Numbered from the stretch's first letter, positions 1-62,246 are shown. The stretch: DNA of 64,000 bases from a virus (IMGVR_UViG_3300031718_000177); one strand, 5' to 3'. Numbers and translations are program-made. Notes: generated from the letters alone by a model not told the origin.

Positions 1-446
1 AGGATCATATGTAATAATTCTTCTTCTTTCTTTGACGATTTGTCGTATTCGGCTAACACCCTAACTTTATTTTTACCACATATTGTTTCATCTATTCTAT
101 TTCTGCTATCTTTGTGCTTTGTAAAACCTACCTTTACAATATAGTTATCATTAATCAAACCATCTGGGAATAGGTGATGAACATACACGCGTGGATCTAT
201 TTTTGTTGCAACGTTTTTTGAATGTGAAAACTTGATTTTGTGTTCTGTACATTTAGATTTAATTTGGCCGACGTGTTCTCTAGGAACAATTTTTGTTATA
301 TTGCCGGTGCTAGGATGAATACATTCATCGACAAGATACCATAATTTATATGTATTGAGAACGGTTTTGATGCGGTTATAACGGTTCTTGCCCCAAACTT
401 GCTCGCATATGTCTGTTAGTAATGTGCCATCGTCAAAATTAATCAT
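1..446 (-). CDS. hypothetical protein, partial (C-terminus runs off the window start)
   Basis: Hand translation of the minus strand from ATG at 444-446: MINFDDGTLLTDICEQVWGKNRYNRIKTVL..., open to position 1; lies directly downstream of the RNA ligase gene on the same strand. Confidence 0.45.
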   Translation of the reverse strand, partial: MINFDDGTLLTDICEQVWGKNRYNRIKTVLNTYKLWYLVDECIHPSTGNITKIVPREHVGQIKSKCTEHKIKFSHSKNVATKIDPRVYVHHLFPDGLINDNYIVKVGFTKHKDSRNRIDETICGKNKVRVLAEYDKSSKKEEELLHMI

Positions 447-555
447 CTGAGACCCTTTCTTGCTAGGTATCAGACGAGAGTATAACAGGATTTTTGCTGG
501 AAAGCAACGGCACTCAGCGACGAAGGCAACGGCAACTGTTTTTCGGGTGAGTGTA

Positions 556-1218
556 TTACATAAGTTCTTCTAATTCTTCCCAATCTTTTTCATTTAAGTG
601 TTTCTTGGCTTCTGTTTTCCATGCGGCAGTTTTGACTTTTGCCATGAAGAGTTTATGCTTACCGCCATCAAACTTTGCGACTATGCCTTCGGGTATTGGT
701 TGTTTAATAGCGAACTTGCTTTGTAAGTTGATTGTATTGTCGATAACGCTTTGGATAAACGGCTCGTTGAATATCCCAACATAAACCTCTTGTGCGGTAT
801 GATAAAGATGACCAAACGTATCCATAAATTGTTTAGGCGGCATTAGCCCTTGCTTGTAAGGAACGCAATCAAAAATTACGAGATTTTTAGGGTCTTCCGA
901 ATCTGGGTAATGATGTCCAGAAAAGGATTTTTGGCCATACCATTCTCCGAAGAAGACTATCTGTTTCATACAGCGTAAGTACTTGTCCTTACGTATCACT
1001 TGCTCTAAACCATCAGCAAGCAGTTCGTGAAATAAGGGAATCACGCTACCAAAGTGTTTACTTGAAGAATCAAAAAGATTCTTGCGAGTTCCGAACATAC
1101 AGAAGCCACGCTTACGATCAAATAGGATACGGATATTGCTCCCATCTAATTTCAGTTGGGCTCGGCAATGCTGGTGCGGAGCACCACTTGGCCCTGGAAT
1201 ACTTGGATATTGACGCAC
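556..1218 (-). CDS. RNA ligase, Rnl2-like nucleotidyltransferase domain (ATP-dependent)
   Basis: Motif I KLDGSN (KxDGxN), motif III FFGEWYG, motif IV EGIVAKFD and motif V KHKLFMAKVK, in the canonical order of covalent nucleotidyltransferases. The N after the motif I Gly favours RNA over DNA ligase. Confidence 0.7.
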   Translation of the reverse strand: MRQYPSIPGPSGAPHQHCRAQLKLDGSNIRILFDRKRGFCMFGTRKNLFDSSSKHFGSVIPLFHELLADGLEQVIRKDKYLRCMKQIVFFGEWYGQKSFSGHHYPDSEDPKNLVIFDCVPYKQGLMPPKQFMDTFGHLYHTAQEVYVGIFNEPFIQSVIDNTINLQSKFAIKQPIPEGIVAKFDGGKHKLFMAKVKTAAWKTEAKKHLNEKDWEELEELM

Positions 1219-1282
1219 AGATTTTCCTCCATCATTATCTTACGACAAGAGAAGGCGATTTTCAAGGGGGATTTAGAAAACA

Positions 1283-1320
1283 AAACCCCGCTACCAACTT
1301 TCGCTGATAACGGGGTTTTT
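1283..1320. terminator. rho-independent terminator-like hairpin with flanking A/T runs
   Basis: aaaaCCCCGctaccaactttcgctgataaCGGGGttttt; sits between the minus-strand gene ending at 1566 and the ligase gene. Confidence 0.45.
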
Positions 1321-1565
1321 AGTACACCTTAATGAATCACTGACCCCGACGAGTCCGATTCGTCTTTCGCTTCGTGGACTTGGCGTTCGCTTGTCGCGTA
1401 TTCCAAGCCTTTTTCCCGAAGCCCGAGATTTGTTTCTCGGTATAGTTTTCACGAATTGTCTTCCACGCACGCTTCGCAGATTCACTGGACATGACACAAA
1501 TCCTTTCACAAAAAGAAACCGACGTTCCATCATATCACACAGTACAGCTAATTTCAACTGGCTCT

Positions 1566-1928
1566 TTATCGTTCATTTTCCCAATTATCGTTGTAATAGA
1601 GTTTCCCATCAACCCCTTGCACCATAATCACAGTTTTTATAGGGAACCAGTTCTGGATTTCTGGTTTCTTTTTGACTAACTCAACAATATCTTTCCAATC
1701 CGTAGAGTCCGTTTCAATATAGGAGGTACATCTAAGTCCGTTCTTATTGACGAACATTACACGATATAGTTTTTTGGTGCTTTCGTTGTGCATACGCTTT
1801 CGTTCCCTTTCTTTTCGCTGCCTTTTCATAATTCGCAATAGTAAATCTGTTGGATTATTCCTTTGTAAAAGTTCTGCGTCAAGTTCATCTAGCGACTTGT
1901 AAAGCTGAATCGCCTTGATTAAGTTCAT
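1566..1928 (-). CDS. hypothetical protein
   Basis: 120-aa ORF in the minus-strand gene chain; basic Arg/Lys-rich segment. Confidence 0.45.
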   Translation of the reverse strand: MNLIKAIQLYKSLDELDAELLQRNNPTDLLLRIMKRQRKERERKRMHNESTKKLYRVMFVNKNGLRCTSYIETDSTDWKDIVELVKKKPEIQNWFPIKTVIMVQGVDGKLYYNDNWENER

Positions 1929-2631
1929 TCTGCACCCACTCTTCCCAATCCCTTTGCCATTGTTGCATATCTAGGCCATATGCTTCTTTAATTGCCTTCG
2001 TCCAACTTCGATTTTTACCCATTTCGATGAATGATACAAATACCTTCGGGCCGTTGCGTTGGAGGAGGTATTCCACCGCTAATGATGATTGACTGTAGAA
2101 TCTTTCATTTACTTCATTGTTATTTGTATAATCAGCTTGCATCAAAGTACGCAACCGAGGGCATAATTCTACATGTGGATAATGCTTGTGGAAGCGATCC
2201 CGTTCCTCGGCTACCTCATTGAGTTCCATATGGATAGCACAGCCCTCATCTAGCCATCGGGGTGTAACACCAAAACGGTCAGCGAATAATAGATGATTGA
2301 CTTCGTGAGGTATAATATGATCGAGAATGAAATCTAACTTTGCGTCTGAACTAAGTTTACCATCTATGATTAGATTCATGTTTCTGAGCGGACGATCCCT
2401 ATATGTTACTTTAGCACCATTTGCATCTCCAAACCATATTTGGCATTTGGTTCGCCAATTAGGCAAGGAATGCCCAAACCAATAAATAGCTTGGGAAGTT
2501 CGGCATGCTTCCGCTCTCTCAACAATCCGTGTCGCGTATGCTTTATCACGAATATCAAAAGAGAAGTTAGGCGATTCAGCAGCGAATAGATTAGTTGGGA
2601 TTAGGATTATTAGGAGGGGAAGAAGACGCAT
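1885..2631 (-). CDS. secreted zinc metallopeptidase (HExxH)
   Basis: N-terminal signal peptide MRLLPLLIILIPTNLFAAE; HEVNH zinc-binding motif followed by a downstream LDEG. Confidence 0.6.
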   Translation of the reverse strand: MRLLPLLIILIPTNLFAAESPNFSFDIRDKAYATRIVERAEACRTSQAIYWFGHSLPNWRTKCQIWFGDANGAKVTYRDRPLRNMNLIIDGKLSSDAKLDFILDHIIPHEVNHLLFADRFGVTPRWLDEGCAIHMELNEVAEERDRFHKHYPHVELCPRLRTLMQADYTNNNEVNERFYSQSSLAVEYLLQRNGPKVFVSFIEMGKNRSWTKAIKEAYGLDMQQWQRDWEEWVQNELNQGDSALQVAR

Positions 2632-2749
2632 GTTGAATCACCAATGAACATTTATAGATATACATCCCCCGCATAGGAAAAACGTGAGTACACCTAGAAT
2701 TGCGACACCGACAAGTATCTCTGACCAGTGATAACTACCAGAAGTGCCT

Positions 2750-3331
2750 TTATCCAATAGGTTTAGCAGTAGAAGAATTGTTGCTACTGTTAGGAAGATC
2801 GGGATTTTCCACCACATCTTTTTTCACATCTTTCCTACACAAAAGATGTCCTTTGGCTTCAAGTTTAGCGAAACTCTCTGTGAAGACACGCTTAAAGAGG
2901 TTGATTGACCATCTGCACGTAGCCATCTCGTCCTTGTGTAAGGCGTGTCCGACTTCATGTAAGTACACCAGTACAGAAAATCTCCCGTCGCTCTCACGCT
3001 CTAAAATTATCACATTTCCTGTTGGAAAGTAGCAGCTTCCAGTAGCGAACTTATCTACAAAGACAAGCTGGGGTTCTTCTATACGATAGATTGCCGATAA
3101 CTCAGCGTTTAGCTGCCGAAACTTCTCTTGCTGATTTCCTTCCCACGGTTTACTTTTCTTAAACTTCTTTAGAACTGCTAACGTATCTTCCCTAAATCTA
3201 AGGTTATCATCGATAACCTCGGCTACCGTTTGGGGATACGGGTTTTTCTCTTGTAATTTACGTTGTTTTCGCTTTAACAACTTGCCTAAGATGTAATCTT
3301 CAATTCTCTCTTCAATCTTATTCATGTTCAT
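2750..3331 (-). CDS. putative zinc metallopeptidase (HExxH)
   Basis: VLVYLHEVGHALH motif; no signal peptide. Confidence 0.5.
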   Translation of the reverse strand: MNMNKIEERIEDYILGKLLKRKQRKLQEKNPYPQTVAEVIDDNLRFREDTLAVLKKFKKSKPWEGNQQEKFRQLNAELSAIYRIEEPQLVFVDKFATGSCYFPTGNVIILERESDGRFSVLVYLHEVGHALHKDEMATCRWSINLFKRVFTESFAKLEAKGHLLCRKDVKKDVVENPDLPNSSNNSSTAKPIG

Positions 3332-3620
3332 AGTGCCTTCATCATACCATTTCCGTAAGAAAAGTCAATCCCCCTATTAGCCGCGATTCTGTTCTATCTT
3401 GCGATAGCTGCCGTCATTTCTCTCATGTTTTTCAACATGGTGGGGTCTTTACGACTTTACCACTGCACCTACCAGCTTCACTGTGCAACTCACACACTCA
3501 GCTATTTGGCTTGCACGCTTCGCAGTTCAAACGAGTTTTAACTCTCCTACGAGGGGTTGTGTGTCGCGAACTTTCCCTCTATGGCTTACGCCACAGCGAC
3601 AGCACCGGAGGATTGACTTT

Positions 3621-4586
3621 TCACTCCTTCAACTCAAACCTTGTTTTCACTCTTTCTGGCGGCACAATATTGTACTGTAATTCCCAAGGATATATTAACT
3701 CTAAATCAACGTCCTGTAACATCGGAAACGGTTGTTGGAACGGTACATCTCGGTTGATTTTCACTTTATCCAGATTCACTATTGTTGAGATATAACCAGT
3801 CCCCACAGGAACCATTCTGGTTATCTCAGAAATATATCCATCTAGGAAGCAATACTGTTTCATCCTAGAGCGTATTTCGTTGCTAAATAACAAGGTAGCT
3901 GTTGTATCCCACATATATTGGCCGTATGGCACTTCTAACATTCTTTCCCACGATTTCCCATTAAATCCATAAATGCCAGTAAAGTAATAATGGAAAATAT
4001 AGTTCTCTTCAATCTTATGCCCGTTTTGAATTATAGATTTAAGCGGACCATAAACAGGAACTAACTTCGTCAAAACTATTTGCTTCTCCCATTCAGCACG
4101 TCTTTTATTATATGCTATTTGAGCTTCTTCCTGTTTTTTTCTAACTATGATATTGAAATAAACATTACCAGTCCTCTCTGGCGGCTTCCATCCTTCAACT
4201 AGTCCTTCGGAGTAAAGAGATACAGAAGGGTCAGTGTGCGCTACGTCTATCATAACTCTAAGTGTTAAAAGCGGGAAGCTCGTTGTCAGAAACGCACGGT
4301 CATCAAACGATTCCCAATGATTATAGGTCTTCAACTTAAATGCCGGGAACTTCTTTACACCGGCGGTATTCTCTGAACTTTGTGGCACATATATGATGTT
4401 ATAATAGTCATGTAAGGAGTTGGATAGCAGTGCTAAATCCGTTGCCCCATACTTCTCCCATTTCCTTTCCAATTCCGCTTGTAGCATTTTTGAATTGGGG
4501 CTATCATCAATCGCTATATAAATAGTTTTCTTATTATCTGCCAGTGCGGGAGTTGTCAATAAAAGAAATAGCAGGATCGCTTTCAC
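3621..4586 (-). CDS. secreted protein, paralog A of a two-member family
   Basis: Signal peptide MKAILLFLLLTTPALA; shares blocks (RAFLTTSFPLLTL / KRAFSNTTFPLLTV, C-terminal P-rich W-E-x-QYN) with the ORF at 5604..6455. Confidence 0.6.
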   Translation of the reverse strand: MKAILLFLLLTTPALADNKKTIYIAIDDSPNSKMLQAELERKWEKYGATDLALLSNSLHDYYNIIYVPQSSENTAGVKKFPAFKLKTYNHWESFDDRAFLTTSFPLLTLRVMIDVAHTDPSVSLYSEGLVEGWKPPERTGNVYFNIIVRKKQEEAQIAYNKRRAEWEKQIVLTKLVPVYGPLKSIIQNGHKIEENYIFHYYFTGIYGFNGKSWERMLEVPYGQYMWDTTATLLFSNEIRSRMKQYCFLDGYISEITRMVPVGTGYISTIVNLDKVKINRDVPFQQPFPMLQDVDLELIYPWELQYNIVPPERVKTRFELKE

Positions 4587-4587
4587 A

Positions 4588-5619
4588 TCACTTGTGTTCT
4601 TTCATCACGCTATCGAAGAAATCAACTAACCAGTTCTTTTCGGGCATTTTATCCGTTTCATATAAAGGTCGCCACTCGGGCCAAAGTACATCTTCTAGGT
4701 TGTTCAAGTGGAGCAGCTTAGGATTGCTTTTCAGATCAGCGATGCCAAAACCTGACCTTTTGATAAAGGCACCAACTTCGCCAGTCGTTGTCGTGCCATA
4801 ATATTGATAGCCACCATAAGCATAAGCTGTGCCAGGATAATTCGCACTTGGTTTTGGTTCTTCGAGTTTATCGGCAAGTGATTTACCATCTGCATATCGC
4901 TTGAAGAAATAACACAAGCCCAAACTGTGCATAAGATTTGTCTTTAAGTTACTTATGTCTCCGGTTTGATAAACATAATTTGCCAATATGCTAAAACTAT
5001 GTCCGCTATTTCTGACGTAACCAGAAAATACATAATGTAGGGCTTGGAAGAAATGTATTTTGGGATTTTTCTCCAATAACTTAACAATCAACCAAGGTAT
5101 TTGGGGTGTGCTATCGGCAAAACGATAACAACACAAAGCGGCATAGACACAATGTCTGCTTGCTCCTTTACCGTGAATAGTACAGTAGTTCCCTCCGTCT
5201 TTGGATTCAGCCGTGGTGCTTAACGGCATTAGGCCATGTTCTTTACAAAGTTCTACCCATCTGAGAAACTCAGTCGATGGAAGCACGCTCTTTAATGGTT
5301 GCTGCGGGGGTTCTACTTGCCAACCACCCATACCGTTCTGGATAAATTGCCCCTTACTATCCTTCATGTATATCGGTACTGAATTAGGGCGGCAGTTATA
5401 GATATAATCATTAAGTTTTCTGGTATAAGTTACATTTCCAAAGCACGCCGCATTTACCATTTCCGTTACTAAGGGTGGGTCATCATATGAAGTAAGTTTC
5501 ATCGATACATAATCGGTTGCAGGGGCAGCAAAGGGGATGGAGATATCGTACCAGTGGTTAGTCATCTTAATCTTTCGTAATTTGGTTAAGAACTTATACA
5601 ACACTATTCTTCTATACAA
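4588..5619 (-). CDS. hypothetical protein, aromatic-rich, flanked by the two secreted paralogs
   Basis: 343-aa ORF; no signal peptide; W/Y/F-rich composition compatible with an alpha/alpha-toroid enzyme. No family assigned. Confidence 0.55.
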   Translation of the reverse strand: MYRRIVLYKFLTKLRKIKMTNHWYDISIPFAAPATDYVSMKLTSYDDPPLVTEMVNAACFGNVTYTRKLNDYIYNCRPNSVPIYMKDSKGQFIQNGMGGWQVEPPQQPLKSVLPSTEFLRWVELCKEHGLMPLSTTAESKDGGNYCTIHGKGASRHCVYAALCCYRFADSTPQIPWLIVKLLEKNPKIHFFQALHYVFSGYVRNSGHSFSILANYVYQTGDISNLKTNLMHSLGLCYFFKRYADGKSLADKLEEPKPSANYPGTAYAYGGYQYYGTTTTGEVGAFIKRSGFGIADLKSNPKLLHLNNLEDVLWPEWRPLYETDKMPEKNWLVDFFDSVMKEHK

Positions 5620-6455
5620 TCGGATGGAAAATAATTATACTGAGGTTCCCAAGGCGGTAAAGGTTGCCTGTAAACCTTGGGGAAAGGGGCTGGGGGTATG
5701 TTGATGTCGGGTACTTTTAATTCATCGCTATTTTCATAACTCCCAAAGCCAATCAATCTTACTACTTTACCATAAACCACATGGTATTCAAGTGATTTAT
5801 CTTTCATGTACACCTTGGATGTTCTTGCGTCAATAGGTTCGCCACTGTAAACACAGTGCCATCTATTATCCTTGAAACAGTAAATAGCAGTAATTCCTTT
5901 AATCCATAGATATTGCTCGAACTTATACACTTTACGTAATCTCAAGTTTGTATCTTTAGCGAATTGGAAAAGATCACCGGTATATTTCTCCATTACTGCT
6001 GTCTGCTCTTCATCATATTGTTCGTTAATAAGGTCAATTTGCTTTAGGTCAAGATAGTATTTTACAGTTAGCAAAGGGAAAGTAGTGTTTGAGAACGCTC
6101 TTTTGTCCAGAACAATCCATTCGGAACGACGGCTATATTTAATTGCTGGACCAGGGAGCGTTACATCAGTTATATAATGTAGATTAGCCCGCCGTTTAAT
6201 CTCAGCAGAGACCGCATTATAGTGAAGCAAAGTTGGTTCGTTATCTTTATTTCTGAATGGTGTATTCAACCAATTTCTGGTTAGTTCATTCTTTAAGAAC
6301 TTTGCTTCGTTACTGTTATCTAGCCCTATGAACAGGTCTATCTTCTTTTCGCGTTCCTTCTTAGTAAGGCGTGGACGCAACGGAAAGATAGGACCAATTG
6401 CTTGTGTTTGGCTAGTGAGTAACAAAAAGACAAACATAGAAACAATAAACTTCAT
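5604..6455 (-). CDS. secreted protein, paralog B of the two-member family
   Basis: Signal peptide MKFIVSMFVFLLLTSQTQA; paralogous to 3621..4586. Confidence 0.6.
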   Translation of the reverse strand: MKFIVSMFVFLLLTSQTQAIGPIFPLRPRLTKKEREKKIDLFIGLDNSNEAKFLKNELTRNWLNTPFRNKDNEPTLLHYNAVSAEIKRRANLHYITDVTLPGPAIKYSRRSEWIVLDKRAFSNTTFPLLTVKYYLDLKQIDLINEQYDEEQTAVMEKYTGDLFQFAKDTNLRLRKVYKFEQYLWIKGITAIYCFKDNRWHCVYSGEPIDARTSKVYMKDKSLEYHVVYGKVVRLIGFGSYENSDELKVPDINIPPAPFPKVYRQPLPPWEPQYNYFPSDCIEE

Positions 6456-6469
6456 GTAGTAGATATGTT

Positions 6470-6560
6470 AAATGCTCAAAAAAGCTAGACACTCTCATTT
6501 CGGCCCTGCCTACCCCCATTTTATGGAGAAGGTCGCGAGTTATGTCTAGCTTGTTTCGAG
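6470..6560 (-). terminator. large stem-loop followed by a U-tract downstream of the acidic-protein gene
   Basis: GCTAGACA...(about 55 nt)...TGTCTAGC stem, then TTTTTTGAGCATTT on the minus strand. Confidence 0.4.
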
Positions 6561-6570
6561 CACTTCTTGA

Positions 6571-6774
6571 TTAGTCGTCTTCGTCTTCGTCCTCTTCGTC
6601 GTCGTCGTCGAGGTCTTCTTCTTCGTCGTCGTCGAGGTCGTCTTCGTCCTCGTCGTCGAAGTCGTCTTCGCCCTCAGCGTCATCCTCTTCTTCATCGAAG
6701 AGAGGGTGATCGAATTGCTGCGTTACAACATCGTCATCGTCATAAACATCGGAACCGTGACCAAAGCCGTTCAT
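6571..6774 (-). CDS. small extremely acidic protein (poly-Asp/Glu)
   Basis: 67 aa, about 60% D/E (…DEEEDDAEGEDDFDDEDEDDLDDDEEEDLDDDDEEDEDEDD). Own promoter and terminator. The plus-strand Arg-rich ORF 6567..6851 is its mirror image. Confidence 0.55.
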   Translation of the reverse strand: MNGFGHGSDVYDDDDVVTQQFDHPLFDEEEDDAEGEDDFDDEDEDDLDDDEEEDLDDDDEEDEDEDD

Positions 6775-6812
6775 TGGAACCTACTCCGCAAAAGGGGAAA
6801 AGGGAAAAGGTG

Positions 6813-6841
6813 AATCTACCACTGTTTGCCAGACTTGTCAA
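6813..6841 (-). promoter_or_regulatory. sigma70-like promoter (TTGACA-17-TAGATT) for the acidic-protein gene
   Basis: Minus-strand read: TTGACAagtctggcaaacagtggTAGATT, about 35 nt upstream of the ATG; GGAG-type RBS follows. Confidence 0.5.
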
Positions 6842-7404
6842 GTCTCTCTGAAAGCAATCTGTTTATCTTGTCTGCGTCTTTTTCTGAATAACTTTCTCAT
6901 TTTATCCTTGTCGAAATCGCCGTGTGCCATCTTGAGGAAATGTCTAATCTTCATTAGTCCTACTTCCGTCTTAAACTCTGCTTCTCTCGCAGCAACAATC
7001 GTGTTATGTGTTGATATTTGACTGGCAAGCTCGAAAGCCCAAGGACACTTCTGATAAAAGTTATTAGCAACCTTTATCGCCTCCTTCTCCATTTGGCGTC
7101 GCATATACCATTCAACCTTCTCATCGTCTATATACCGTTTGCCATAACGGTGGATAACAAAAGATAAGTCAAAGCCATCGGGATAATTCAACGACTCGAA
7201 GGTGCCGTCTTCCGTCAGTACAGCAACGAGTACGAATTCCATTTCTTTGCCATTCCAATGCGCAGCCTCCTCACACGGACTTATACGACATGCTTCTGCA
7301 TTTATGGGAATAACATTCAAGTTACCGTTGATATATTTGCCGGTATAACCTACGTTATAAATTGGAAACTCCAATTCTTCCCGTAAAAGCCTTGGACGTT
7401 TCAA
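6838..7404 (-). CDS. hypothetical protein
   Basis: 188-aa ORF in the minus chain. Confidence 0.5.
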   Translation of the reverse strand: MKRPRLLREELEFPIYNVGYTGKYINGNLNVIPINAEACRISPCEEAAHWNGKEMEFVLVAVLTEDGTFESLNYPDGFDLSFVIHRYGKRYIDDEKVEWYMRRQMEKEAIKVANNFYQKCPWAFELASQISTHNTIVAAREAEFKTEVGLMKIRHFLKMAHGDFDKDKMRKLFRKRRRQDKQIAFRET

Positions 7405-7567
7405 GAGACTATCCTCATCTTGCTTTCAAGCGTTTTTCCCACAAGGAAAGTATTGTCCGATAAACATGCATATTAGGTTGATAACTTTTGAAGAATCGTT
7501 CATCCTCATTGAAATAGATTTTCGATAAAGCCCCTGCAACTGCGGGAGAACGGGAATAGCCCATATT

Positions 7568-7870
7568 TCAATGAATCATCAAAATGTCTATCTCAAATTG
7601 GAGACGTTCAACGAACTCTAAGATAGAAGCAGCGTCACTTTCATCGAATAGACGGACATCTTTATCAACTCGTCCTTCGTCCTTGCATTCCTGTAAATAT
7701 TTTTCAGTGTCATAATCACCAAATGTGAGTTGAAGAAGCCCTATCAGTTTATTATCTGCGTGGATTTTAGGTCGGTCTTCTTCCTCTGTTACTATGGAGA
7801 TACACGCCCAAGGTTTATCGGTATGATAAACCTCTGCATTGGCTCTGCTTAGTGTGATGATTTCTTGCAT
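7568..7870 (-). CDS. hypothetical protein
   Basis: 100-aa ORF. Confidence 0.45.
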   Translation of the reverse strand: MQEIITLSRANAEVYHTDKPWACISIVTEEEDRPKIHADNKLIGLLQLTFGDYDTEKYLQECKDEGRVDKDVRLFDESDAASILEFVERLQFEIDILMIH

Positions 7871-7897
7871 TTTCTATTCTTTGGGCATATATAAGGT

Positions 7898-8107
7898 ATG
7901 AACACCGTATTACTAATCTGTGCCATCATAAGTGCTACGTTTGCTGGGGCATTTTTCTATCGTGCTTATCTTGAAATGCAAGCCCAAAAGGAAAAGAAGG
8001 GCTTTTTAATGCTTGCAGTTGGTGGTTTACTAATCTTCTTTCTTCCCGGTATATTCTTTCTGCTTTTGGTTGGTGCCATTATATTGATGATGATGCACGT
8101 CCTTTAA
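7898..8107 (+). CDS. small membrane protein (2 TM)
   Basis: 69-aa hydrophobic ORF in a gap between minus-strand genes. Confidence 0.3.
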   Translation: MNTVLLICAIISATFAGAFFYRAYLEMQAQKEKKGFLMLAVGGLLIFFLPGIFFLLLVGAIILMMMHVL

Positions 8108-8493
8108 TCGTGGAAAACAAGTTTCTTCATAAGGAAAATCGGAACAGTTGCCACGGTTGCCATGATGGCATAAAGTATACGCACTACACTTATGATCGGA
8201 CTTGATAGATAAAGTAAGACGATACCGCAAGCGTCGAGCTTGTTTACTTCCATGTATTCTCTTGTATTTTTGGATGTCCAACGGTCAGCTATCATCTTAA
8301 AATCATCCCTGCCGTTATAGACGGAGTTCAAGAAGTTTAACGTACTTCTCTTACCCATAGTAAAAAGTAAGGTGATATAACCAACGAGAAACCACCACCC
8401 AGGACTAAGAGATGAAAGCTGATTGTATAGTTGTTGCGGACTGGTGCTATAATGAAGCACTTGGCCAACTATTTGTTGGATTTGGTCTTGCAT
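8104..8493 (-). CDS. membrane protein
   Basis: 129-aa ORF with hydrophobic segments. Confidence 0.45.
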   Translation of the reverse strand: MQDQIQQIVGQVLHYSTSPQQLYNQLSSLSPGWWFLVGYITLLFTMGKRSTLNFLNSVYNGRDDFKMIADRWTSKNTREYMEVNKLDACGIVLLYLSSPIISVVRILYAIMATVATVPIFLMKKLVFHD

Positions 8494-9086
8494 TTTTTCT
8501 CATCTTTCTCAGGCGTGAACTTCGCCGAGGGCAATAGTACAGGAAAATGCTGCTTCAGAATGGGATTCAACTTCTTTATAGTTCTTGCTTTTTCTTCTCG
8601 CAATTCCTTGGTTCTGTCTCTACAATCCTCTATCTTTCGATCTATATCGGATAAGATATTGTTAAGATAGATCGTTTCGGCCAGGACGAAATGTTCTCTG
8701 TTTCTCCGGTAGAAAGATAACAAGACAGGATACAGGGACTTGCGGAAGTTCTCTTCTAATTTGGGTGATAAGTTAGATGATAAAGAGCCGTCTTCTTCTA
8801 ATGGGACGACTTGTCTTTTTGATATTTTCCCGCTAAAAGTAAAGGATACCTTATAAAGTGTCTTTGATTTTTTGTAAGTAAGTAAGGTGGAAAGACAAGA
8901 GACATTAAAGGTATTACCGCTAGTAGGAGTAATGTGTATAGTACCAGAAATTGCTTGAAAAGCAATATTTGTCTTGAAAGATGGAAAATCCATCTTTCGC
9001 AATGGACTTGTGCTGTACATCACTTTGTCCACAAAGATACCCACCAGCTTCCTACTCTGATGATAAGCGGCAGAGCAACACAACAA
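8469..9086 (-). CDS. hypothetical protein
   Basis: 205-aa ORF; true start may be an internal Met. Confidence 0.45.
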   Translation of the reverse strand: MLCCSAAYHQSRKLVGIFVDKVMYSTSPLRKMDFPSFKTNIAFQAISGTIHITPTSGNTFNVSCLSTLLTYKKSKTLYKVSFTFSGKISKRQVVPLEEDGSLSSNLSPKLEENFRKSLYPVLLSFYRRNREHFVLAETIYLNNILSDIDRKIEDCRDRTKELREEKARTIKKLNPILKQHFPVLLPSAKFTPEKDEKKCKTKSNK

Positions 9087-9422
9087 GCCAGAAACGCATA
9101 AACCATCCAGCTATATCTTTTCCAATGACCAGACGTGAAATAATTCTTACCGTTATGAAATGGCTTATCCAACGCCTGTAAATTGTTCCTCTCTTTAAGT
9201 AAAGAGAACAAATGGTCTGTGTCCATATGCATATTTATGAACTAATCTAAAGTTTTTGGGTCGATGCATAGGACGACGAGCAGGTACGTTTTGCCAATTC
9301 TGGATATTTCAGAACAATAATCGTCCGCAATCTGTTTAGACGTGATAAAGCCCTGCGGAAAGCGATATAACCGGCCTGATCTTTACGGTTTTTTCGATAA
9401 TGTGCCTCTAATCTATTAACTT

Positions 9423-9716
9423 TCAGGGTAAGATAAGCAATTTGTGCCGATAGAGAGTATCACACCAACTTCTCCTTACCGTATTACTTGGCAGCCAACT
9501 TTGTCGATATCTTTTGGCTCCTAAATCAAACCACTTTTGATATTGTTCAGAATCGTCAAAGCGTGGGCACATAAACTTTGCACCATGCTGCATCTCAATG
9601 AATAGTTGTGGTTGTGAGTCATCATTACGATAATAGATATCTTCGTTTTCAGTTTGTCCAACGAGTTTCCATACATTAGGATCGAGGCAACTGCTAAACT
9701 TTGGTTGGAGTTTCAT
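9423..9716 (-). CDS. hypothetical protein
   Basis: 97-aa ORF; 4-nt overlap with the upstream gene. Confidence 0.45.
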   Translation of the reverse strand: MKLQPKFSSCLDPNVWKLVGQTENEDIYYRNDDSQPQLFIEMQHGAKFMCPRFDDSEQYQKWFDLGAKRYRQSWLPSNTVRRSWCDTLYRHKLLILP

Positions 9717-11314
9717 TCGCCCATCTCGCGGAGTTTCTCAAACTCGGCCCGTGCTGGCTCGTAATTATCGGGTTTGTATTCCAACGTTTTTCGATCGAAT
9801 TCGAACTTCGACCAGGAACCCGCTTTCGTATAAAAACTAAATAGCGAAAAACCTTCTTTCAACCGGCGGTTGATTCTATCGTAGAATTCGTCTGTGAGAT
9901 ATTCTGTTTTGGATGTCCTAATTTCATTGTCAAAAGAATCGTTATGATAACACGCTATTAACATATAAGGAATGACCTGGCTCGTGCCGACCACCACGCC
10001 TGGACGACCGGGATAGGAGAGGCCATCGTTTCTTGCAAGTACTACAGTGTATTTATTCTTTCTCTCAACTCTTAGGATTTGATCTACTTTCATATGAAAG
10101 AAAGCGGCAATTTCTGCACTTCGGTAGCCATTCCTTGGAAAGTGAGTTGGAGACATTTTATTCTGATAACGGGTCGGCCCAACAATTTGTTCGTCAGTCA
10201 GAACAGTATCATTATTCTTCTTTCTCTCCTTGGTAAAATCTCTTTTAATAAAATCTGTGAATATAGTGAATATCGTAGCATTACTTTCATGTATAGGGAA
10301 GAGTTCAAATAACGAACGTGTTTCTAATTTTTCTAATCCTTCCTTAATTTTAAGTGCCTCAGCCGCAGAGCATTCTCTCTGCACATAAGTTTTAAGTTCA
10401 GTGCTCGTTGCGTCCATATATTCTATAGCAAACAACATATATGGCAACCAGTTGTTAGATTTTTGTAATGCCGCCAACATTAAACCGTAACTACCTATAC
10501 GTTCGTAATCTATGGACTTAGTTATAAAATTAGATGGAAATCTGGCAGTAAATTGTCTAACTTCATCATCAACGCTGATTTCAGTTATCTCCTCAATTTT
10601 CCTCTTTGAGAAGAGAAAATCTGCTAATGCTACCTGGACGTTAACGGTATCGTACGGAATGATTCCAGATAAAGAAAGTCCGTTATTTAAGCTCTGTATA
10701 ATATGAGAAGTTTGCTCTCGGGTACAATAAGCAATATCGCTATTATAATAATAAGGCCCATGCTTGTTCCATCGAACCAATTTATGTGTAAGCGGCTGCG
10801 AGCTTGGACCCTGTGTATTTTTAAGTTCTATCAACATAATAAACCGGTCGGCCTTTAGCTCTACTACTAGTACCTCATCTGGTCCAATGATACCGGAAGG
10901 AATCTCTTTTAATAGTTCATCGGTAGGTAGCGTTATTGTATCTCTTAATTTTATCTTGCCGTTTGCGTTCGCGTGCTGCTGCTCGTTTTGCTCGCCGTCT
11001 CTCGGGTTTACTTTTCCTATTTCCTTTTTTTTTTCTGCAATTATCCTTTCTTTTCTGCTCTTACAACATTTCGTACAAACGCAAGTATCGGGTTTACCGG
11101 TACAGCTTTCTTCCTTAGCTTTTTGTCTTTCTTCATATCGTTGTAAGTCGATTTCTATCGCTTTCGCATGAGCCGCCAACCTGTCTTCAATAGTAAAGAT
11201 AGAATAAGCGTAATCAGGGAGGTCCATCTTTTTATACTTCTTACCTATCTCACGAAGTTTTGTACAAACATCTGTTATCCCGGATAGAAGTTGTCTATTA
11301 TAATCTTGTGTCAT
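9713..11314 (-). CDS. hypothetical protein with a possible PD-(D/E)xK nuclease-like core
   Basis: 533-aa ORF; the segment GIIGPDEVLVVELKADRFIMLIELK carries a PD…(E)xK pattern. The nuclease assignment is tentative. Confidence 0.55.
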   Translation of the reverse strand: MTQDYNRQLLSGITDVCTKLREIGKKYKKMDLPDYAYSIFTIEDRLAAHAKAIEIDLQRYEERQKAKEESCTGKPDTCVCTKCCKSRKERIIAEKKKEIGKVNPRDGEQNEQQHANANGKIKLRDTITLPTDELLKEIPSGIIGPDEVLVVELKADRFIMLIELKNTQGPSSQPLTHKLVRWNKHGPYYYNSDIAYCTREQTSHIIQSLNNGLSLSGIIPYDTVNVQVALADFLFSKRKIEEITEISVDDEVRQFTARFPSNFITKSIDYERIGSYGLMLAALQKSNNWLPYMLFAIEYMDATSTELKTYVQRECSAAEALKIKEGLEKLETRSLFELFPIHESNATIFTIFTDFIKRDFTKERKKNNDTVLTDEQIVGPTRYQNKMSPTHFPRNGYRSAEIAAFFHMKVDQILRVERKNKYTVVLARNDGLSYPGRPGVVVGTSQVIPYMLIACYHNDSFDNEIRTSKTEYLTDEFYDRINRRLKEGFSLFSFYTKAGSWSKFEFDRKTLEYKPDNYEPARAEFEKLREMGE

Positions 11315-11329
11315 TGGTTATTCCGTATT

Positions 11330-11719
11330 CTACGATCTTTCATAATCGCCACCATGTGTTTTGGATATCAGAATTGAAAATATTTGCCCATTATAGTTGA
11401 TTGCCATTACCTCGGATACAGAAAAGGCGAGAGAATCAACACGATAACTGCCAGAGACAGGAACTTTTTTTACTTTAACCGGGTCACGAAAAAAGTTATC
11501 CTTTATTTCCATTGTGTTAAATAAACCGGGTTCTTTTGATTCCTTGCTATAATATCTGTTAAAAGCATCCCACGATGTTTCTTTCTGTGGTTCTCGCTTT
11601 TGTTCTTGTTGTAAGATACCTTCTACCGGAGGGGATTTACCAGCCGGTAATACAAAAACCTCTGTGCCCAGTAATAAATCTAATATCTGTTGAAAGAGCT
11701 TAACTACCTTGGCATCCAT
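11330..11719 (-). CDS. hypothetical protein
   Basis: 129-aa ORF directly downstream of tilS. Confidence 0.45.
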   Translation of the reverse strand: MDAKVVKLFQQILDLLLGTEVFVLPAGKSPPVEGILQQEQKREPQKETSWDAFNRYYSKESKEPGLFNTMEIKDNFFRDPVKVKKVPVSGSYRVDSLAFSVSEVMAINYNGQIFSILISKTHGGDYERS

Positions 11720-12760
11720 CTATGTCATCTTTTGGAATGTCACTATATCGCTATTACGTCGTGTTACCTGGACGTTACCAGGAAACGTGGCGGAACCACC
11801 ATCTCTAAAGAGATGATACATTTTTTGCCAATGTTCGCAAGTGAGTTTTCCAATCTCCCACTCCACTCCTTGCCAAAACTTAATCAGCACTTCTTTAGCA
11901 AGATAGGGATGTTGAGCCATAATGGGACCGGTGGGAAGTCTGTAGCTACCGTCCTTATATTGGTCTAGTTTTTTATCAAACATACGGTGGAGCACTTTTG
12001 ATACTTCTTTATCAATGAAATCCCTTACGTCCTCTGCTTGATTACCTAAGTTGGTTAAAGCTGATTTAACTTGAACGTTGTAATTACTTAATAGAGGCAA
12101 TAGCTCTTTTCTAATACGATTACGGGCATAATCCATTGAATCGTTGCTGGAATCGGTTCTAAAAGATTGTCCTTTAGATTCCAGATAAGATAACACTTCT
12201 TCTCGCGTACAGTTAAGCATCGGTCTAATGAGTTTAACATCATCATTTAACCAACGGATAGCTGGCATACCGGCAAGCCCTTTAACGCCAGTGCCGCGAA
12301 TAATACGAAATAAAATTGTTTCTGCTTGGTCATCTGCGGTATGAGCTACGGCTACATAGTCGCATTCGTGAATATCTGCCTCTTTCTCAAATGTTTTATA
12401 TCGGATATATCTCGCAGCTTCCTCGATACCATTACCGCGTTTTTCTGCTAATGCTTTAACATCGCAATCGACGATAACGCAACTTATTTTAAGATTGCTA
12501 CATAAATCTCCAACAAACCGGGCATCTTCATCTGATTCTTTGCCCCGTAGTTGATGATTGATATGGCAAGCGATTGGAGCAAGGCTATATTCGTCCCGTA
12601 GTTCATTTAAGGTAAGCAGCAAGGATACGCTATCGGCACCGCCAGATACGCCAACTAGGATTCTGCCGCCTGCAACTTCTGGCTGCATCGCATGCGGATC
12701 GCCTTCAATTTTATTCTCTTTCAAGAACTTATAAATCGGAAACAGCGTGTTCATGGTCAT
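11720..12760 (-). CDS. tilS: tRNA(Ile)-lysidine synthetase
   Basis: PP-loop ILVGVSGGADSVSLL (SGGxDS) and HINHQLRG block typical of TilS; 346 aa. Confidence 0.85.
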   Translation of the reverse strand: MTMNTLFPIYKFLKENKIEGDPHAMQPEVAGGRILVGVSGGADSVSLLLTLNELRDEYSLAPIACHINHQLRGKESDEDARFVGDLCSNLKISCVIVDCDVKALAEKRGNGIEEAARYIRYKTFEKEADIHECDYVAVAHTADDQAETILFRIIRGTGVKGLAGMPAIRWLNDDVKLIRPMLNCTREEVLSYLESKGQSFRTDSSNDSMDYARNRIRKELLPLLSNYNVQVKSALTNLGNQAEDVRDFIDKEVSKVLHRMFDKKLDQYKDGSYRLPTGPIMAQHPYLAKEVLIKFWQGVEWEIGKLTCEHWQKMYHLFRDGGSATFPGNVQVTRRNSDIVTFQKMT

Positions 12761-13407
12761 GCTACCCTCTTGACTAATCTGACCCTGCGGGCAACATAGT
12801 TTTCGTTCTTGAAAATACTATGTGTAAAATCTTGACAAGCGATATATCCGATCTTATATCCTATCCTCGGATGCTTCCTGTAACTACTCCAGTCGCCATT
12901 ACACATAGTATATAATCTCCAAAATGTTTCATAACTATCCGACTTTGATGTTGGACACGGAGCATGATTAATCAGTACAGGATCGTCTGCTTCGCACAAA
13001 TACGCTTCGATATTGTCCGCAATAGCAGCTTCTCCTGCCGCATGAGCTATTGCGTTGATTTTACCCTTGAATAGAAAGATACGACCGAAGTTAGGAGTAG
13101 TCCATTTACCTAGATTATATTCCAAATCCCAATAAGGGTCATCTTGTAAATCATATAAAGACCGAAGCCGATTGCCTTCTCTGCGCACAAGTTTATAGTA
13201 CAACTCATGGTCTAAAACATTACTGTTTATGCCTTCTTCTTCCCAGCCGAGATAATTAAATGACCTTGCGGGGTCTTCGCTTTCTTTTAAGGAATCTAGG
13301 AGGATGTGTAGTGCTTGCTTGTACGTATCGGCTACAATGCCTACTCTAGGCTTTTTTATCTGCCTGCGGTCATAAGTCGCACAATCGTACTCAAAGAAGT
13401 GGAGCAT
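12757..13407 (-). CDS. hypothetical protein, translationally coupled to tilS
   Basis: 216-aa ORF; ATGA overlap with the tilS start. Confidence 0.5.
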   Translation of the reverse strand: MLHFFEYDCATYDRRQIKKPRVGIVADTYKQALHILLDSLKESEDPARSFNYLGWEEEGINSNVLDHELYYKLVRREGNRLRSLYDLQDDPYWDLEYNLGKWTTPNFGRIFLFKGKINAIAHAAGEAAIADNIEAYLCEADDPVLINHAPCPTSKSDSYETFWRLYTMCNGDWSSYRKHPRIGYKIGYIACQDFTHSIFKNENYVARRVRLVKRVA

Positions 13408-13410
13408 GGC

Positions 13411-14226
13411 TTATGTAAATAAAAAGCCTTCTTTGGGGCAAACCTTACACTTCTTGATTTCCACTCCGTCTGTTGGAATGTCAAATGCTTCCCAGCATTT
13501 GATAACTTCCTTTGCTTCATCCAGAGTTTCTACAATTGCAATTCCACTATTGAATTGTAAGATACCATCATCTTTTACAAGAGCGTAACCATCAAGTTCC
13601 CCGAAGGATTCAGCGATAAAGGCGTTGAACTTATTTAGGAACGGCATCACTTTTGCTATCTCGTATTTAAGATTAGCTCCCATGTGAAACTTGGTATCTT
13701 CTGTCGGTTTGATTAACAGATACTCGCCACCAAGATAGTTGATAAACTCACTCACTTGAAATAAAGAATCAGAAAGATTCTTGGGACTTCTTGTTTGTAC
13801 ATCGGCACTAATAAATCCTTTCAAGCTTTCGGCGATGTGAGTGATAACAGATATGGGGTGGGGGCTCTCCCGTTCAAGATCAGACGTTCTATCCTGTGAT
13901 GGATATGTAGCGTCCACCTTCTCAAACTCATCTTTATGATGACTCAACTTACAAAATAGTCCGATTTGTATCATATCTTCGGCAGAGAACTCCTGATTTT
14001 GCCGCAGAGCGTTTACAAAGATTTCTCTTATATTGCTCACTTCTTCACAACAAGCAGGAAGCAAGCTACCTTCTGCATTTATAAGCTCAAACCATGTTTG
14101 CGGTTCAAATGGTATATGAACAGATTGCACTTGAATAACGCCATCGGAGTAATCAAATGTGCGTACATCACGCATATTGATTCCCAAATCAGCAAGAACA
14201 CCAACTAATTCTTCTTTATTTGGCAT
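13411..14226 (-). CDS. hypothetical protein
   Basis: 271-aa ORF upstream in the same operon-like run. Confidence 0.5.
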   Translation of the reverse strand: MPNKEELVGVLADLGINMRDVRTFDYSDGVIQVQSVHIPFEPQTWFELINAEGSLLPACCEEVSNIREIFVNALRQNQEFSAEDMIQIGLFCKLSHHKDEFEKVDATYPSQDRTSDLERESPHPISVITHIAESLKGFISADVQTRSPKNLSDSLFQVSEFINYLGGEYLLIKPTEDTKFHMGANLKYEIAKVMPFLNKFNAFIAESFGELDGYALVKDDGILQFNSGIAIVETLDEAKEVIKCWEAFDIPTDGVEIKKCKVCPKEGFLFT

Positions 14227-14514
14227 CTAGTAACCCCTTCCTGAAGTGTCTTGGTTGACGAAATTGTCAGGAACTTCGTCTTTCTTCAGTTTCTTGAACA
14301 GCAATTTTTTATATCCTTGTAATGCTGCAATCTCCTTGCGTGCTTCAGCAAGGTCTTTCACAAGTTTTGTATTTTCTTCTTGCTTCCTTTTTAATCTACT
14401 CTGGGCAAGTACAACTTTACCTTCGGTAAGCCGCAACTTTGCCTGTAGAGATTCCGTATCCAATAGTTCATCTATTGAAATACCGGCATCTGAGAGAGCA
14501 CGAATTACTTTCAT
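14227..14514 (-). CDS. coiled-coil protein
   Basis: 95 aa, heptad-like charged repeats. Confidence 0.45.
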   Translation of the reverse strand: MKVIRALSDAGISIDELLDTESLQAKLRLTEGKVVLAQSRLKRKQEENTKLVKDLAEARKEIAALQGYKKLLFKKLKKDEVPDNFVNQDTSGRGY

Positions 14515-16103: not shown

Positions 16104-16106
16104 TGT

Positions 16107-16322
16107 TCATTCTTTCTTTTGGAAATCAGGATAACCGAGATGTTTCAACAGCATGACAAAAGCGGGGATAAACAACAACATACCGACTGCCCAATAAACG
16201 TTATGGCTTTGGAATAGTCGGTATATGCATGGAGCTACAAAGAGGAGCCAAGCAAGAAGCGTATATGGGGCTAAAGAGAACCATATATGCTTAAACCAAG
16301 CCCAATAATTTTGGAAAAACAT
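16107..16322 (-). CDS. small membrane protein
   Basis: 71 aa, two hydrophobic helices. Confidence 0.45.
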   Translation of the reverse strand: MFFQNYWAWFKHIWFSLAPYTLLAWLLFVAPCIYRLFQSHNVYWAVGMLLFIPAFVMLLKHLGYPDFQKKE

Positions 16323-16324
16323 TA

Positions 16325-16504
16325 TTACTTGCCGGGACAGTGCTTACACTTACAATTCGGGCAATGGCAGTTATGGTCTTTACAAGTACACCCTTTGCCT
16401 TCCGCACAATGACAACCTGCTTTGGAATCAACAGGACTCTCGCAACCCACACAAGAAAAACCAACAAACAACGCACAGCATACCAAACCGATCAAACTTT
16501 TCAT
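16325..16504 (-). CDS. Cys/His-rich secreted miniprotein (59 aa), below the ORF-track threshold
   Basis: Hand translation: MKSLIGLVCCALFVGFSCVGCESPVDSKAGCHCAEGKGCTCKDHNCHCPNCKCKHCPGK. Signal-peptide-like N-terminus, then about 14 Cys and 4 His in 35 residues. Its stop lies 2 nt from the next gene's ATG. Confidence 0.5.
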   Translation of the reverse strand: MKSLIGLVCCALFVGFSCVGCESPVDSKAGCHCAEGKGCTCKDHNCHCPNCKCKHCPGK

Positions 16505-16622
16505 TGAAACACCTTTCTTTGAGAAAAAACTGACTGCCTATTATATAGGCATCTCCTTTAATAATTGCCCGCTTCCGAGTTGAACGGAAATCGCGAGGGT
16601 CAGAACCTCGTGTGTTAGCCAA

Positions 16623-16946
16623 TTACACCAACGGGCCACCATCATCCTCAAACCGCATAAGTTCGAGATTTTCCATATACCAATCAATCTTACTTTGTAT
16701 ATTAAAATAACAACTTAATAGATTATGTACACCTTTCCACGACTTTTGTTCTCTAATAGCAAATACCAACATATGGCTCGCGTCAATACCTATGATGTGC
16801 ATATGAAAAAACTTACCTATCTTCAGGTTCCGTTCTATGTAAATCTCAGCATCTTCTATTTCCTTGACGCGATATAACTTCCAAGATACATTCTTGTGAT
16901 AAACTCCCTTGTCATATTCGATTAAGGTAAGGCTAGATGCCGCCAT
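16623..16946 (-). CDS. hypothetical protein
   Basis: 107-aa ORF. Confidence 0.45.
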   Translation of the reverse strand: MAASSLTLIEYDKGVYHKNVSWKLYRVKEIEDAEIYIERNLKIGKFFHMHIIGIDASHMLVFAIREQKSWKGVHNLLSCYFNIQSKIDWYMENLELMRFEDDGGPLV

Positions 16947-46236: not shown

Positions 46237-46283
46237 TTGCGCAGTATACCATATTTGGATTCAGAAATCAATGGTCGGAATGC

Positions 46284-62217: not shown

Positions 62218-62246
62218 AGCATATCAGGATTGGGATTTGATGTCAA
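62218..62246 (-). promoter_or_regulatory. sigma70-like promoter TTGACA-17-TATGCT upstream of 60689..62194, inside the tnpB 3' flank
   Basis: Minus-strand read TTGACAtcaaatcccaatcctgaTATGCT, about 25 nt before the ATG. Confidence 0.4.

Follow-up and report, generated by a model that had tools for sequence, protein, structure and literature searches.

A 67-codon open reading frame (ORF) on the minus strand, running from an ATG to a TAA at 6571..6774, most likely represents a genuine small gene that is transcribed from its own promoter in a probable jumbo phage, and its product is extremely acidic. The ORF lies in a stretch of viral DNA of 64,000 nucleotides (64 kb), which was analysed at its full length and is called the window below. 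The encoded protein, MNGFGHGSDVYDDDDVVTQQFDHPLFDEEEDDAEGEDDFDDEDEDDLDDDEEEDLDDDDEEDEDEDD, contains 28 Asp and 14 Glu residues (63% D/E), two His and neither Lys nor Arg, which gives a net charge of -42. We tentatively favour the reading that this protein may act as a disordered polyanionic decoy of a host nucleic-acid-binding protein, by analogy with the acidic segment of Gp44 from phage SPO1.

The composition of the ORF sets it apart from everything else in the window, where the most acidic other ORF has 24% D/E and a scan of all six frames for 30-residue windows with at least 60% D/E returned the acidic ORF only. The protein falls into two parts. The N-terminal 26 residues (6697..6774, minus strand) are non-repetitive and contain the aromatic or hydrophobic residues F4, V10, Y11, V16, V17, F21, L25 and F26, and we regard this stretch as a candidate specificity or anchor segment. 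The C-terminal 41 residues (6574..6696, minus strand) are Asp or Glu at 36 of 41 positions (88%), with A33, G35, F39, L47 and L55 as the interruptions. Because residues 27-67 are so rich in D/E, they offer no material for a hydrophobic core, and AlphaFold2, run on the single sequence, predicted no helices or strands (mean pLDDT 59, pTM 0.12). On the basis of composition and this weak single-sequence model, the protein is expected to be a disordered polyelectrolyte in the form of an extended coil.

The sequence-only reading had described an ORF of about 60% Asp/Glu at this place, which agrees with our coordinates and composition, and had named a mirror Arg-rich ORF on the plus strand as the alternative. 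Since the GAC/GAA repeat described below leaves every frame open, the openness of a frame carries no information here, and we compared the strands by a codon-usage score trained on the long ORFs of the window. Over the whole ORF, the log-likelihood was +30.7 bits for the acidic frame and +7.6 bits for the Arg-rich frame, and the coding statistics thus favour the minus strand. The same was found in codons 1-30, which are free of the repeat: the acidic frame scored +11.2 bits there, a value that lies at the 92nd percentile of true in-frame windows of 90 nt and was attained by none of the off-frame windows and by 0.1% of the best-antisense windows, whereas the plus frames reached +1.4 bits or less. 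Moreover, the gene callers used in three public assemblies picked the acidic ORF, and its protein is identical across these assemblies, which possibly come from one sample. The neighbours of the ORF are all on the minus strand, in a densely packed gene run. If there is a gene here, it is the minus-strand acidic ORF; the plus-strand Arg-rich ORF of 94 aa (6567..6851) is the longest ORF across the region and has a weakly positive score over the repeat, but it begins with a TTG inside the 3' hairpin without a ribosome-binding site (RBS), lies antisense to a uniformly minus-strand gene run, loses by a wide score difference in its non-repeat part and was chosen by no gene caller, and we find it scarcely credible as the gene.

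Upstream of the ORF, a sigma70-like promoter candidate occupies 6813..6841 on the minus strand, with the -35 element TTGACA at 6841..6836, a 17-nt spacer and the -10 element TAGATT at 6818..6813. A TG at 6821..6820 makes this an extended -10, and the site scores 10/12, with a perfect -35 and 4/6 positions in the -10; the two hexamers are as previously described, and the earlier wording of a near-consensus promoter was right for the -35 and generous for the -10. The -35 overlaps the TGA stop codon of an upstream 188-aa ORF. We also considered a fusion with this upstream ORF by read-through and rejected it, because a TGA and a TAG stop separate the two, which share a reading frame. Generic sigma70-like sites occur at chance frequency, with 49 in the first 20 kb (1-20 kb) against 51.4 +/- 7.4 expected from shuffles and no enrichment, so the promoter alone proves nothing. 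The narrower pattern TTGACW-N14-15-TGnTAnnnT has two matches in 64 kb against 0.22 expected (at 6841 and 62246), and each lies between genes on the minus strand, just ahead of the start of a gene. Intergenic sequence makes up 9% of the total, compared with 4/20 of the minus-strand sites scoring at least 10/12 in the window and 3/6 of the sites at this score that also have the TG. Judged from these sequence features, promoter function of 6813..6841 is plausible.

The predicted 5' leader contains a pyrimidine-rich repeat (6790..6810, minus strand) that reads CCUUUU CCCUUUU CCCCUUUU. The threefold CCCUUUU repeat is unique in the window, with 0 expected by chance, and a search for the CU-rich motif at the other genes of the window found that it is not shared. 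The leader shows no significant structure (z +0.47). As a guess, it might work as a translational enhancer of the ribosomal-protein-S1 type. The leader is followed by a Shine-Dalgarno-like GGAG at 6787..6784, 9 nt 5' of the ATG, and by a second candidate, AGG, at 5-nt spacing; AAGGA/GGAG-type leaders are common to many other genes of the window. Together with the hairpin that follows the ORF, the promoter-like site, the GGAG and the reading frame form the compact unit inside the minus-strand gene run that the earlier reading had proposed, and every element of it was found in place.

The acidic tail is encoded by a tandem repeat with a period of 24 nt and four copies (6574..6670, minus strand; repeat family D1), which Tandem Repeats Finder reported with 86-88% matches. 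The repeat unit encodes E-E-D-L-D-D-D-D, and the four copies read GEDDFDDE, DEDDLDDD, EEEDLDDD and DEEDEDED, by which the hydrophobic residues F39, L47 and L55 are spaced exactly 8 residues apart. Codon use in the ORF also departs from that of the genome, as Asp is written GAC:GAT in a ratio of 22:6 compared with 270:660 in the genome (Fisher p = 1.4e-7), and D/E runs elsewhere in the window contain 37 GAT and 14 GAC. The G+C content is 53% in the ORF and 40% in the genome. Most simply, the tail would have arisen when slippage expanded a GAC-rich unit fairly recently; alternatively, the GAC bias may reflect selection of better-decoded NNC codons in a highly expressed gene.

The repeat raises the question of whether the ORF does anything at all. 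It could be a young, essentially functionless proto-gene, in which replication slippage multiplied a GAC/GAA-rich 24-nt unit within a short intergenic or orphan sequence; the frame would then lack stops for no other reason than that repeats of this kind have none in any frame. The four tandem copies, the opening of all six frames across the repeat, the deviating codon use and the lack of detected homologues agree with this, as does the fact that the flanking genes are also orphans, which is typical of fast-evolving accessory regions. The sequence-only reading had stated that a low-complexity repeat without conservation would speak against its proposal, and formally this is what we found, a 24-nt tandem repeat with no conservation detected, in a locus that is without relatives as a whole. 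However, the non-repeat N-terminal 30 codons carry a strong coding signal in exactly the acidic frame, and the ORF is bracketed precisely, by a promoter-like site belonging to a rare class and an ATG with its RBS on one side and by a strong 3' hairpin on the other. The identity of the protein in the three assemblies also argues against a proto-gene, with the reservation on their origin made above, and so does the recurrence of comparable ORFs in unrelated viral contigs. We consider a functionless proto-gene rather unlikely but take it seriously, as the expanded repeat and its codon use are equally compatible with it, and the present evidence fits both a functional decoy and a young repeat-derived ORF. 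If the ORF is merely the latter, it would be an ordinary feature of fast-evolving orphan regions in large phages.

Searches for relatives covered a very large sequence space. The acidic ORF had no homologue among about 15 billion proteins, and a pattern scan of IMG/VR together with tblastn returned only the ORF itself. The same self-match was the sole result of a word-indexed search of a 5.8-billion-cluster protein database and of an exhaustive HMMER search of 1.84 billion representatives. No match was obtained against PDB chains (E <= 10), against the Pfam (E <= 0.1), PHROG (E <= 0.01) and NCBIfam (E <= 0.1) family models, or by tblastn with the N-terminal 39 aa against a phage collection (E <= 10). 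A second member of the protein cluster (P0004), the sole apparent variant, was rejected as such: it is the same protein with a TTG start translated as Leu, and not a recorded gene product. The surroundings behaved in the same way, as protein searches with both flanking proteins returned only themselves, and scans of IMG/VR and JGI metagenomes with the neighbour proteins found no relatives. A near-identity DNA search gave no match, nor did a search of phage records with a 1228-aa protein of the window, and the TnpB element of the window had no relative in the reference genomes. Because the entire locus, flanking proteins included, is without relatives, the absent homologues say neither for nor against a function of the acidic ORF.

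The genome itself is probably that of a jumbo phage and less likely another giant extrachromosomal element. Over positions 1..16774, the window agrees with a stretch of a 292,671-bp ENA metagenome contig at 99.994% identity. Among 92 ORFs scanned, about 85% are ORFans, and the remainder of the gene content includes four HNH-endonuclease PHROG families, an RNA ligase, a clamp-loader-like AAA ATPase, an exonuclease, a PP-loop/TilS-like protein, an adenylate kinase, DnaJ, SprT, an SPFH protein, an IS605-type TnpB and one tRNA-Gln. The best matches of the TilS-like protein are from uncultured gut phages and jumbo phages. The 64-kb window was found to contain neither capsid nor tail genes, and the region is likely to be non-structural. 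The genetic code is standard, since all three stop codons are used to terminate long ORFs in the window; a reassigned stop codon, as a public gene call spanning a stop might suggest, was rejected because that call results from a single SNP (position 7568, TGA here and TGC in the ENA contig).

A separate observation was made elsewhere in the window. A 280-nt non-coding gap contains an RNase P-like RNA of 256 nt (3361..3616, minus strand), which matches the bacterial RNase P RNA class A model end to end with an E value of 3.4e-12 and a score of 42.8 bits, below the gathering score of 100 bits. The catalytic-core motifs are conserved and the entire specificity domain is missing, and the RNA was missed by both whole-window scans. 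Its neighbourhood is tRNA-themed, with the tRNA-Gln, the TilS-like protein and the RNA ligase, and a full-text literature search for descriptions of RNase P RNA encoded by a phage found none.

Although the acidic ORF has no relatives, ORFs of its kind are not restricted to this genome. When viral contigs were scanned by composition for runs of 12 or more D/E codons, at least 120 loci were found, and among the loci listed there were 105 complete ORFs with such runs, of which 17 were 130 aa or shorter. The listed loci include analogues of 45-90 aa that stand alone and combine a short non-acidic N-terminus with a D/E tail. Examples are L083 (45 aa, 69% D/E), which has an AGGAG RBS and lies inside a co-oriented gene run, L115 (53 aa, 58% D/E), L028 (70 aa, 50% D/E), which has an AAAGGAG RBS on a 221-kb contig, L021 (66 aa) and L012 (84 aa). 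Several analogues, among them L083, L028, L021 and L012, have a good RBS in co-oriented gene arrays, and in some of the analogues hydrophobic or aromatic residues are distributed through the acidic tract. The 33-47% identity of these five to the acidic ORF in alignment A2 is compositional and does not demonstrate homology. Viral genomes thus repeatedly contain small poly-acidic ORFs that stand alone, an uncharacterised class defined by composition, and the acidic ORF lies at its extreme end.

If the preferred reading of a Gp44-like decoy holds, host RNA polymerase (RNAP) would transcribe the unit from the extended -10 promoter, possibly early in infection, and the mRNA would end at the large 3' hairpin or be processed and stabilised by it. 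The action of the protein would be electrostatic, with the flexible charged tail covering the surface by which a host or defence protein binds nucleic acid. Candidate targets would be RNAP, a nucleoid protein (HU, H-NS), an SSB partner or a restriction or defence nuclease. Hydrophobic contacts that add affinity or specificity could be supplied by the N-terminal 26 residues (F4, Y11, V16-V17, F21, L25-F26) together with F39, L47 and L55.

Disorder and extreme charge suit an acidic chaperone as well as a decoy. The protein might neutralise the charge of the phage's own basic proteins, shielding very basic DNA-binding or packaged proteins until assembly, or it might be an acidic head-internal or scaffold peptide; nucleoplasmin-type acidic chaperones and the acidic internal peptides of T4 heads are models for such roles, and the sequence-only reading had also mentioned a chaperone-like or scaffolding peptide. 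Possible clients are present in the window, namely the proteins encoded at 32792..33358 (188 aa, net charge +32, pI 10.3), 42175..42792 (net +22) and 30667..30969 (net +16), and the C-terminus of the upstream neighbour is basic as well (KMRKLFRKRRRQDK). However, the three basic proteins are encoded 24-36 kb from the acidic ORF, genes for structure or assembly are missing from its surroundings, and it has a putative host-type promoter of its own in a region that looks non-structural. A search of the 92 ORFs of the 64-kb window for capsid, portal, protease and scaffold families, as in a T4 gp67/gp68-type context, found none. We regard a chaperone or scaffold role as an outside possibility that deserves attention.

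Another variant of the decoy idea, which we hold to be fairly doubtful, takes the protein as a free-standing, fully disordered and domain-free nucleic-acid mimic, that is, a multivalent decoy with a hydrophobic residue at every eighth position. It would sequester a host protein that binds single-stranded DNA or the SSB tail, or a defence nuclease. The C-terminal tip of SSB (...DFDDDIPF) is likewise acidic-hydrophobic, and DDFDD and DDLDD of the repeat are reminiscent of it. If this were true, the ORF would stand for an unrecognised class of small phage proteins, active in counter-defence or takeover and invisible to homology searches, that repeat expansion creates again and again, as the compositional analogues in other viral contigs hint. 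More generally, if the acidic ORF is functional, it would be a phage nucleic-acid decoy that needs no folded scaffold, only a short anchor and a poly-Asp/Glu tail produced by slippage. Proteins of this kind would be invisible to homology and structure searches and thereby systematically missed by catalogues of anti-defence and takeover proteins, and composition-based screens would be the way to find them.

The 3' end of the unit has to be considered in its own right. A large stem-loop at 6470..6565 (minus strand) begins 20 nt past the stop codon of the acidic ORF and consists of an A-rich/U-rich lower stem and a core hairpin at 6484..6550, followed by a U6 tract at 6478..6483. The whole structure folds with -41.8 kcal/mol, compared with -23.1 +/- 3.2 for dinucleotide shuffles (z -5.95; 0/200 as good), and the core hairpin, which is directly followed by TTTTTT, with -24.4 kcal/mol. 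The sequence-only reading had called this a large terminator hairpin with a U-tract; the hairpin and the U6 are real, and the structure far exceeds a canonical terminator in size and branching. The U6 directly follows an 8-bp closing stem with 4 G-C pairs, while the apparent loop is 51 nt with an inner hairpin and lies outside canonical terminator geometry. A standard terminator scan did not list the hairpin because it is too large and branched (67-95 nt), and in a noisy scan for a hairpin plus T5 or more it was one of two intergenic candidates on the minus strand. Rfam searches with the hairpin and the leader at E <= 10 gave chance-level matches only and no family, and the hairpin is not repeated elsewhere in the 64-kb window.

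A downstream ORF (5604..6455) starts about 15-30 nt past the U-tract, without a convincing promoter of its own. If this ORF is expressed, its closeness and its missing promoter mean that termination cannot be complete, and the hairpin is probably not a full stop. A role as an attenuator or as an RNase III-type processing or stability element would fit at least as well as a simple terminator. The early mRNAs of T7, including that of gene 0.3, are bounded by large RNase III-type processing hairpins. One may go further and suppose that the functional product is RNA, that the unit exists for its CU-rich leader and its structured 3' element, and that the acidic ORF is incidental; the 3' element could then be an attenuator for the downstream genes, a small RNA or a hairpin for stability or RNase III processing. 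The size and stability of the hairpin, unusual for a terminator (95 nt), the regulated read-through or processing implied by the promoterless downstream gene, and the unique leader repeat all point in this direction. Nevertheless, the hairpin matches no Rfam family and has no second copy in the window, and an RNA product leaves the coding signal of the acidic ORF unexplained, and we judge this explanation improbable as a replacement for the protein. RNA and protein roles of the unit are not mutually exclusive.

The sequence-only reading had taken extreme acidity and a strong host-type promoter as the signature of a DNA mimic of the Ocr or ArdA type, and had suggested looking for a charge pattern that resembles B-DNA. 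With a folded surface that resembles bent B-form DNA, such a protein would block BREX or type I restriction. Ocr (T7 gp0.3) and ArdA are small, very acidic and encoded by phages or mobile elements, as is the case here, and they are expressed early from host-recognised promoters; acidity, small size and a host-type promoter speak for this explanation, and nothing else does. Ocr and ArdA are folded helical dimers of roughly 117-170 residues, with carboxylates in a B-DNA-like pattern and roughly 25-30% D/E, and ArdA has an elongated three-domain fold of roughly 165 aa. By comparison, the acidic ORF has 67 aa and, with D/E at 63% of all residues and 88% of those in the tail, too few hydrophobic residues for a core. 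It matched no Pfam, NCBIfam or PHROG model at permissive thresholds and no PDB sequence, and the single-sequence structure model contains no secondary structure and no fold that could display a B-DNA-like charge pattern. On these sequence and model comparisons, the acidic ORF is not a member of the Ocr or ArdA families, and a folded mimic of this type is very unlikely. It may nevertheless be an early anti-defence gene of another kind.

The decoy reading, which we continue to prefer, finds better counterparts among disordered acidic proteins. The delta subunit (RpoE) of Firmicutes RNA polymerase has a C-terminal domain with a long disordered, repetitive D/E-rich tract, which is regarded as a nucleic-acid mimic and helps clear DNA or RNA from RNAP. 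The tail of the acidic ORF resembles this tract in being repetitive, D/E-rich and predicted to be disordered. The two differ in that a folded N-terminal domain, which binds RNAP, anchors the delta tail, and in that delta belongs to a conserved cellular family, whereas the acidic ORF is a free-standing and apparently viral orphan.

The closest characterised analogue of the acidic ORF is the middle domain of SPO1 Gp44. Gp44 is an early host-takeover protein of a Bacillus phage that inhibits RNA polymerase (PMC8208478). It is a protein of 27 kDa with three domains, of which the folded N-terminal DNA-binding domain and the C-terminal region are needed for full activity (PMC8208478). Its homologues are reported among Bacillus phages only (PMC8208478), and no homology to Gp44 was found for the acidic ORF by tblastn against the phage collection (E <= 10) or by the whole-protein searches, so that the likeness is one of analogy. 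The acidic ORF lacks both flanking domains, as 26 residues precede its tail and nothing follows it, and it has two His where the Gp44 segment also has none. The middle domain of Gp44 (residues 56-122) comprises 67 residues with 57% D/E, no basic residues and two repeats, and was found by NMR and MD to be disordered and likened to single-stranded DNA (PMC8208478). This segment binds the beta and beta' subunits of RNAP in a two-hybrid assay (PMC8208478). Like the probable source of the acidic ORF, Gp44 comes from a large lytic phage, and the proposed object of mimicry is flexible single-stranded nucleic acid and not B-DNA. In length (67 residues in both), in a D/E content above 50% (57% in the Gp44 segment; 63% in the acidic ORF and 88% in its tail), in the absence of Lys and Arg, in internal repeats and in disorder, which is predicted here, the acidic ORF resembles the Gp44 segment, and it may work in a comparable way.

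The non-coding gap of 280 nt between the ORFs 3621..4586 and 2750..3331 holds an element resembling RNase P RNA (3361..3616, minus strand), which matched the Rfam model of bacterial RNase P RNA class A (RF00010) with E = 3.4e-12 and a score of 42.8 bits, below the gathering score of 100 for this model. The whole model (positions 1-367) was spanned by just 256 nt. P1-P3, GAGGAAAGU (CR-I), CAAGCCAAAUAG, the L15 GGU and ACAGAAnCGGCUNA were kept in this RNA, while the specificity domain (P7-P12) was deleted. The element 3361..3616 is a candidate for a minimal, phage-encoded RNase P RNA that would consist of the catalytic domain only. Its neighbourhood includes a tRNA-Gln, a TilS-like PP-loop protein and an RNA ligase. 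The element was not picked up by either of two scans of the whole window, and a full-text literature search found no paper on phage-encoded RNase P RNA.

The 67-aa Asp/Glu-rich ORF (6571..6774, minus strand) lies in the same reading frame as the 188-aa ORF upstream of it (6838..7404), whose protein carries a basic tail at its C-terminus, KMRKLFRKRRRQDK. The shared frame, which would arise by chance in one case out of three, is probably a coincidence; read-through from the 188-aa ORF into the acidic ORF is unlikely, as the 22 codons between them (6775..6840, minus strand) contain two different stops, TGA at 6838..6840 and TAG at 6781..6783. Over 16.8 kb, the window differed from the near-identical ENA metagenome contig solely at 7568, where the window has T and the contig has G. 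This changes a Cys codon (TGC) of the contig to TGA in a 151-aa gene (7415..7870, minus strand; weak match to PHROG 5614) and breaks it into ORFs of 100 aa and 49 aa. The T is either a population polymorphism that creates a nonsense codon or a mistake of sequencing or assembly.

The putative phage genome also contains an IS605-family TnpB (62260..63480, minus strand) with HTH_OrfB_IS605, OrfB_IS605 and Cas12f1-like TNB domains, which matched PHROG 506 with E = 2e-120; no close relative was found in the reference-genome scan. Immediately downstream of it, before the ORF 60689..62194, lies the only other member (62218..62246, minus strand) of the promoter class TTGACW-N14-15-TGnTAnnnT, to which the candidate promoter of the acidic ORF belongs. 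Elsewhere, a 38-nt sequence, GTCAAACTTTTTCCGCATTTGCGCAGTATACCATATTT on the plus strand, was present in two perfect copies (46219..46256 and 46694..46731); read on the minus strand, each copy puts AAATATGGTATACTGCGCAA immediately ahead of an ATG, that of the ORF 45628..46236 or that of the ORF 46496..46711. Because this extended -10-like element (TGnTATACT) leaves only ~7 nt to the start codon, the sequence suggests that their transcripts are leaderless or have a very short leader.

Three large orphan proteins (14514..16103, 23798..27484 and 36918..38861, all minus strand) are built from internal repeats. The 529-aa ORF has ~5 copies of a unit of ~240 nt with a DNA identity of 77-90%, and the 1228-aa and 647-aa ORFs have in common a short recurring FKVGD-type motif (DNA ...ACTCTATCGCCAACCTTGAA...), which resembled SH3-like/KOW-like small-barrel families (R67 DHFR, DUF1918) at scores below threshold.

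Three very basic orphan proteins, all on the minus strand, are encoded at 32792..33358 (net +32, pI 10.3), 42175..42792 (net +22) and 30667..30969 (net +16, pI 11.8). Such proteins might bind nucleic acid or be packaged, and it is conceivable that they are partners of an acidic chaperone, a polyanion that would shield the phage's own basic proteins. Among the matches listed from a composition scan of viral contigs for runs of at least 12 D/E codons, two loci (on IMG/VR contigs 3300009184_004189 and 3300009180_003275) encode homologous viral proteins of 86-88 aa. Their N-terminal domain (MS..EIW.ELKR.VN.VDRDEAAET...) is conserved and appears to be folded, and a poly-D/E tail follows it. They form a conserved family of small acidic-tailed phage proteins, which, unlike the acidic ORF 6571..6774, could be analysed comparatively.
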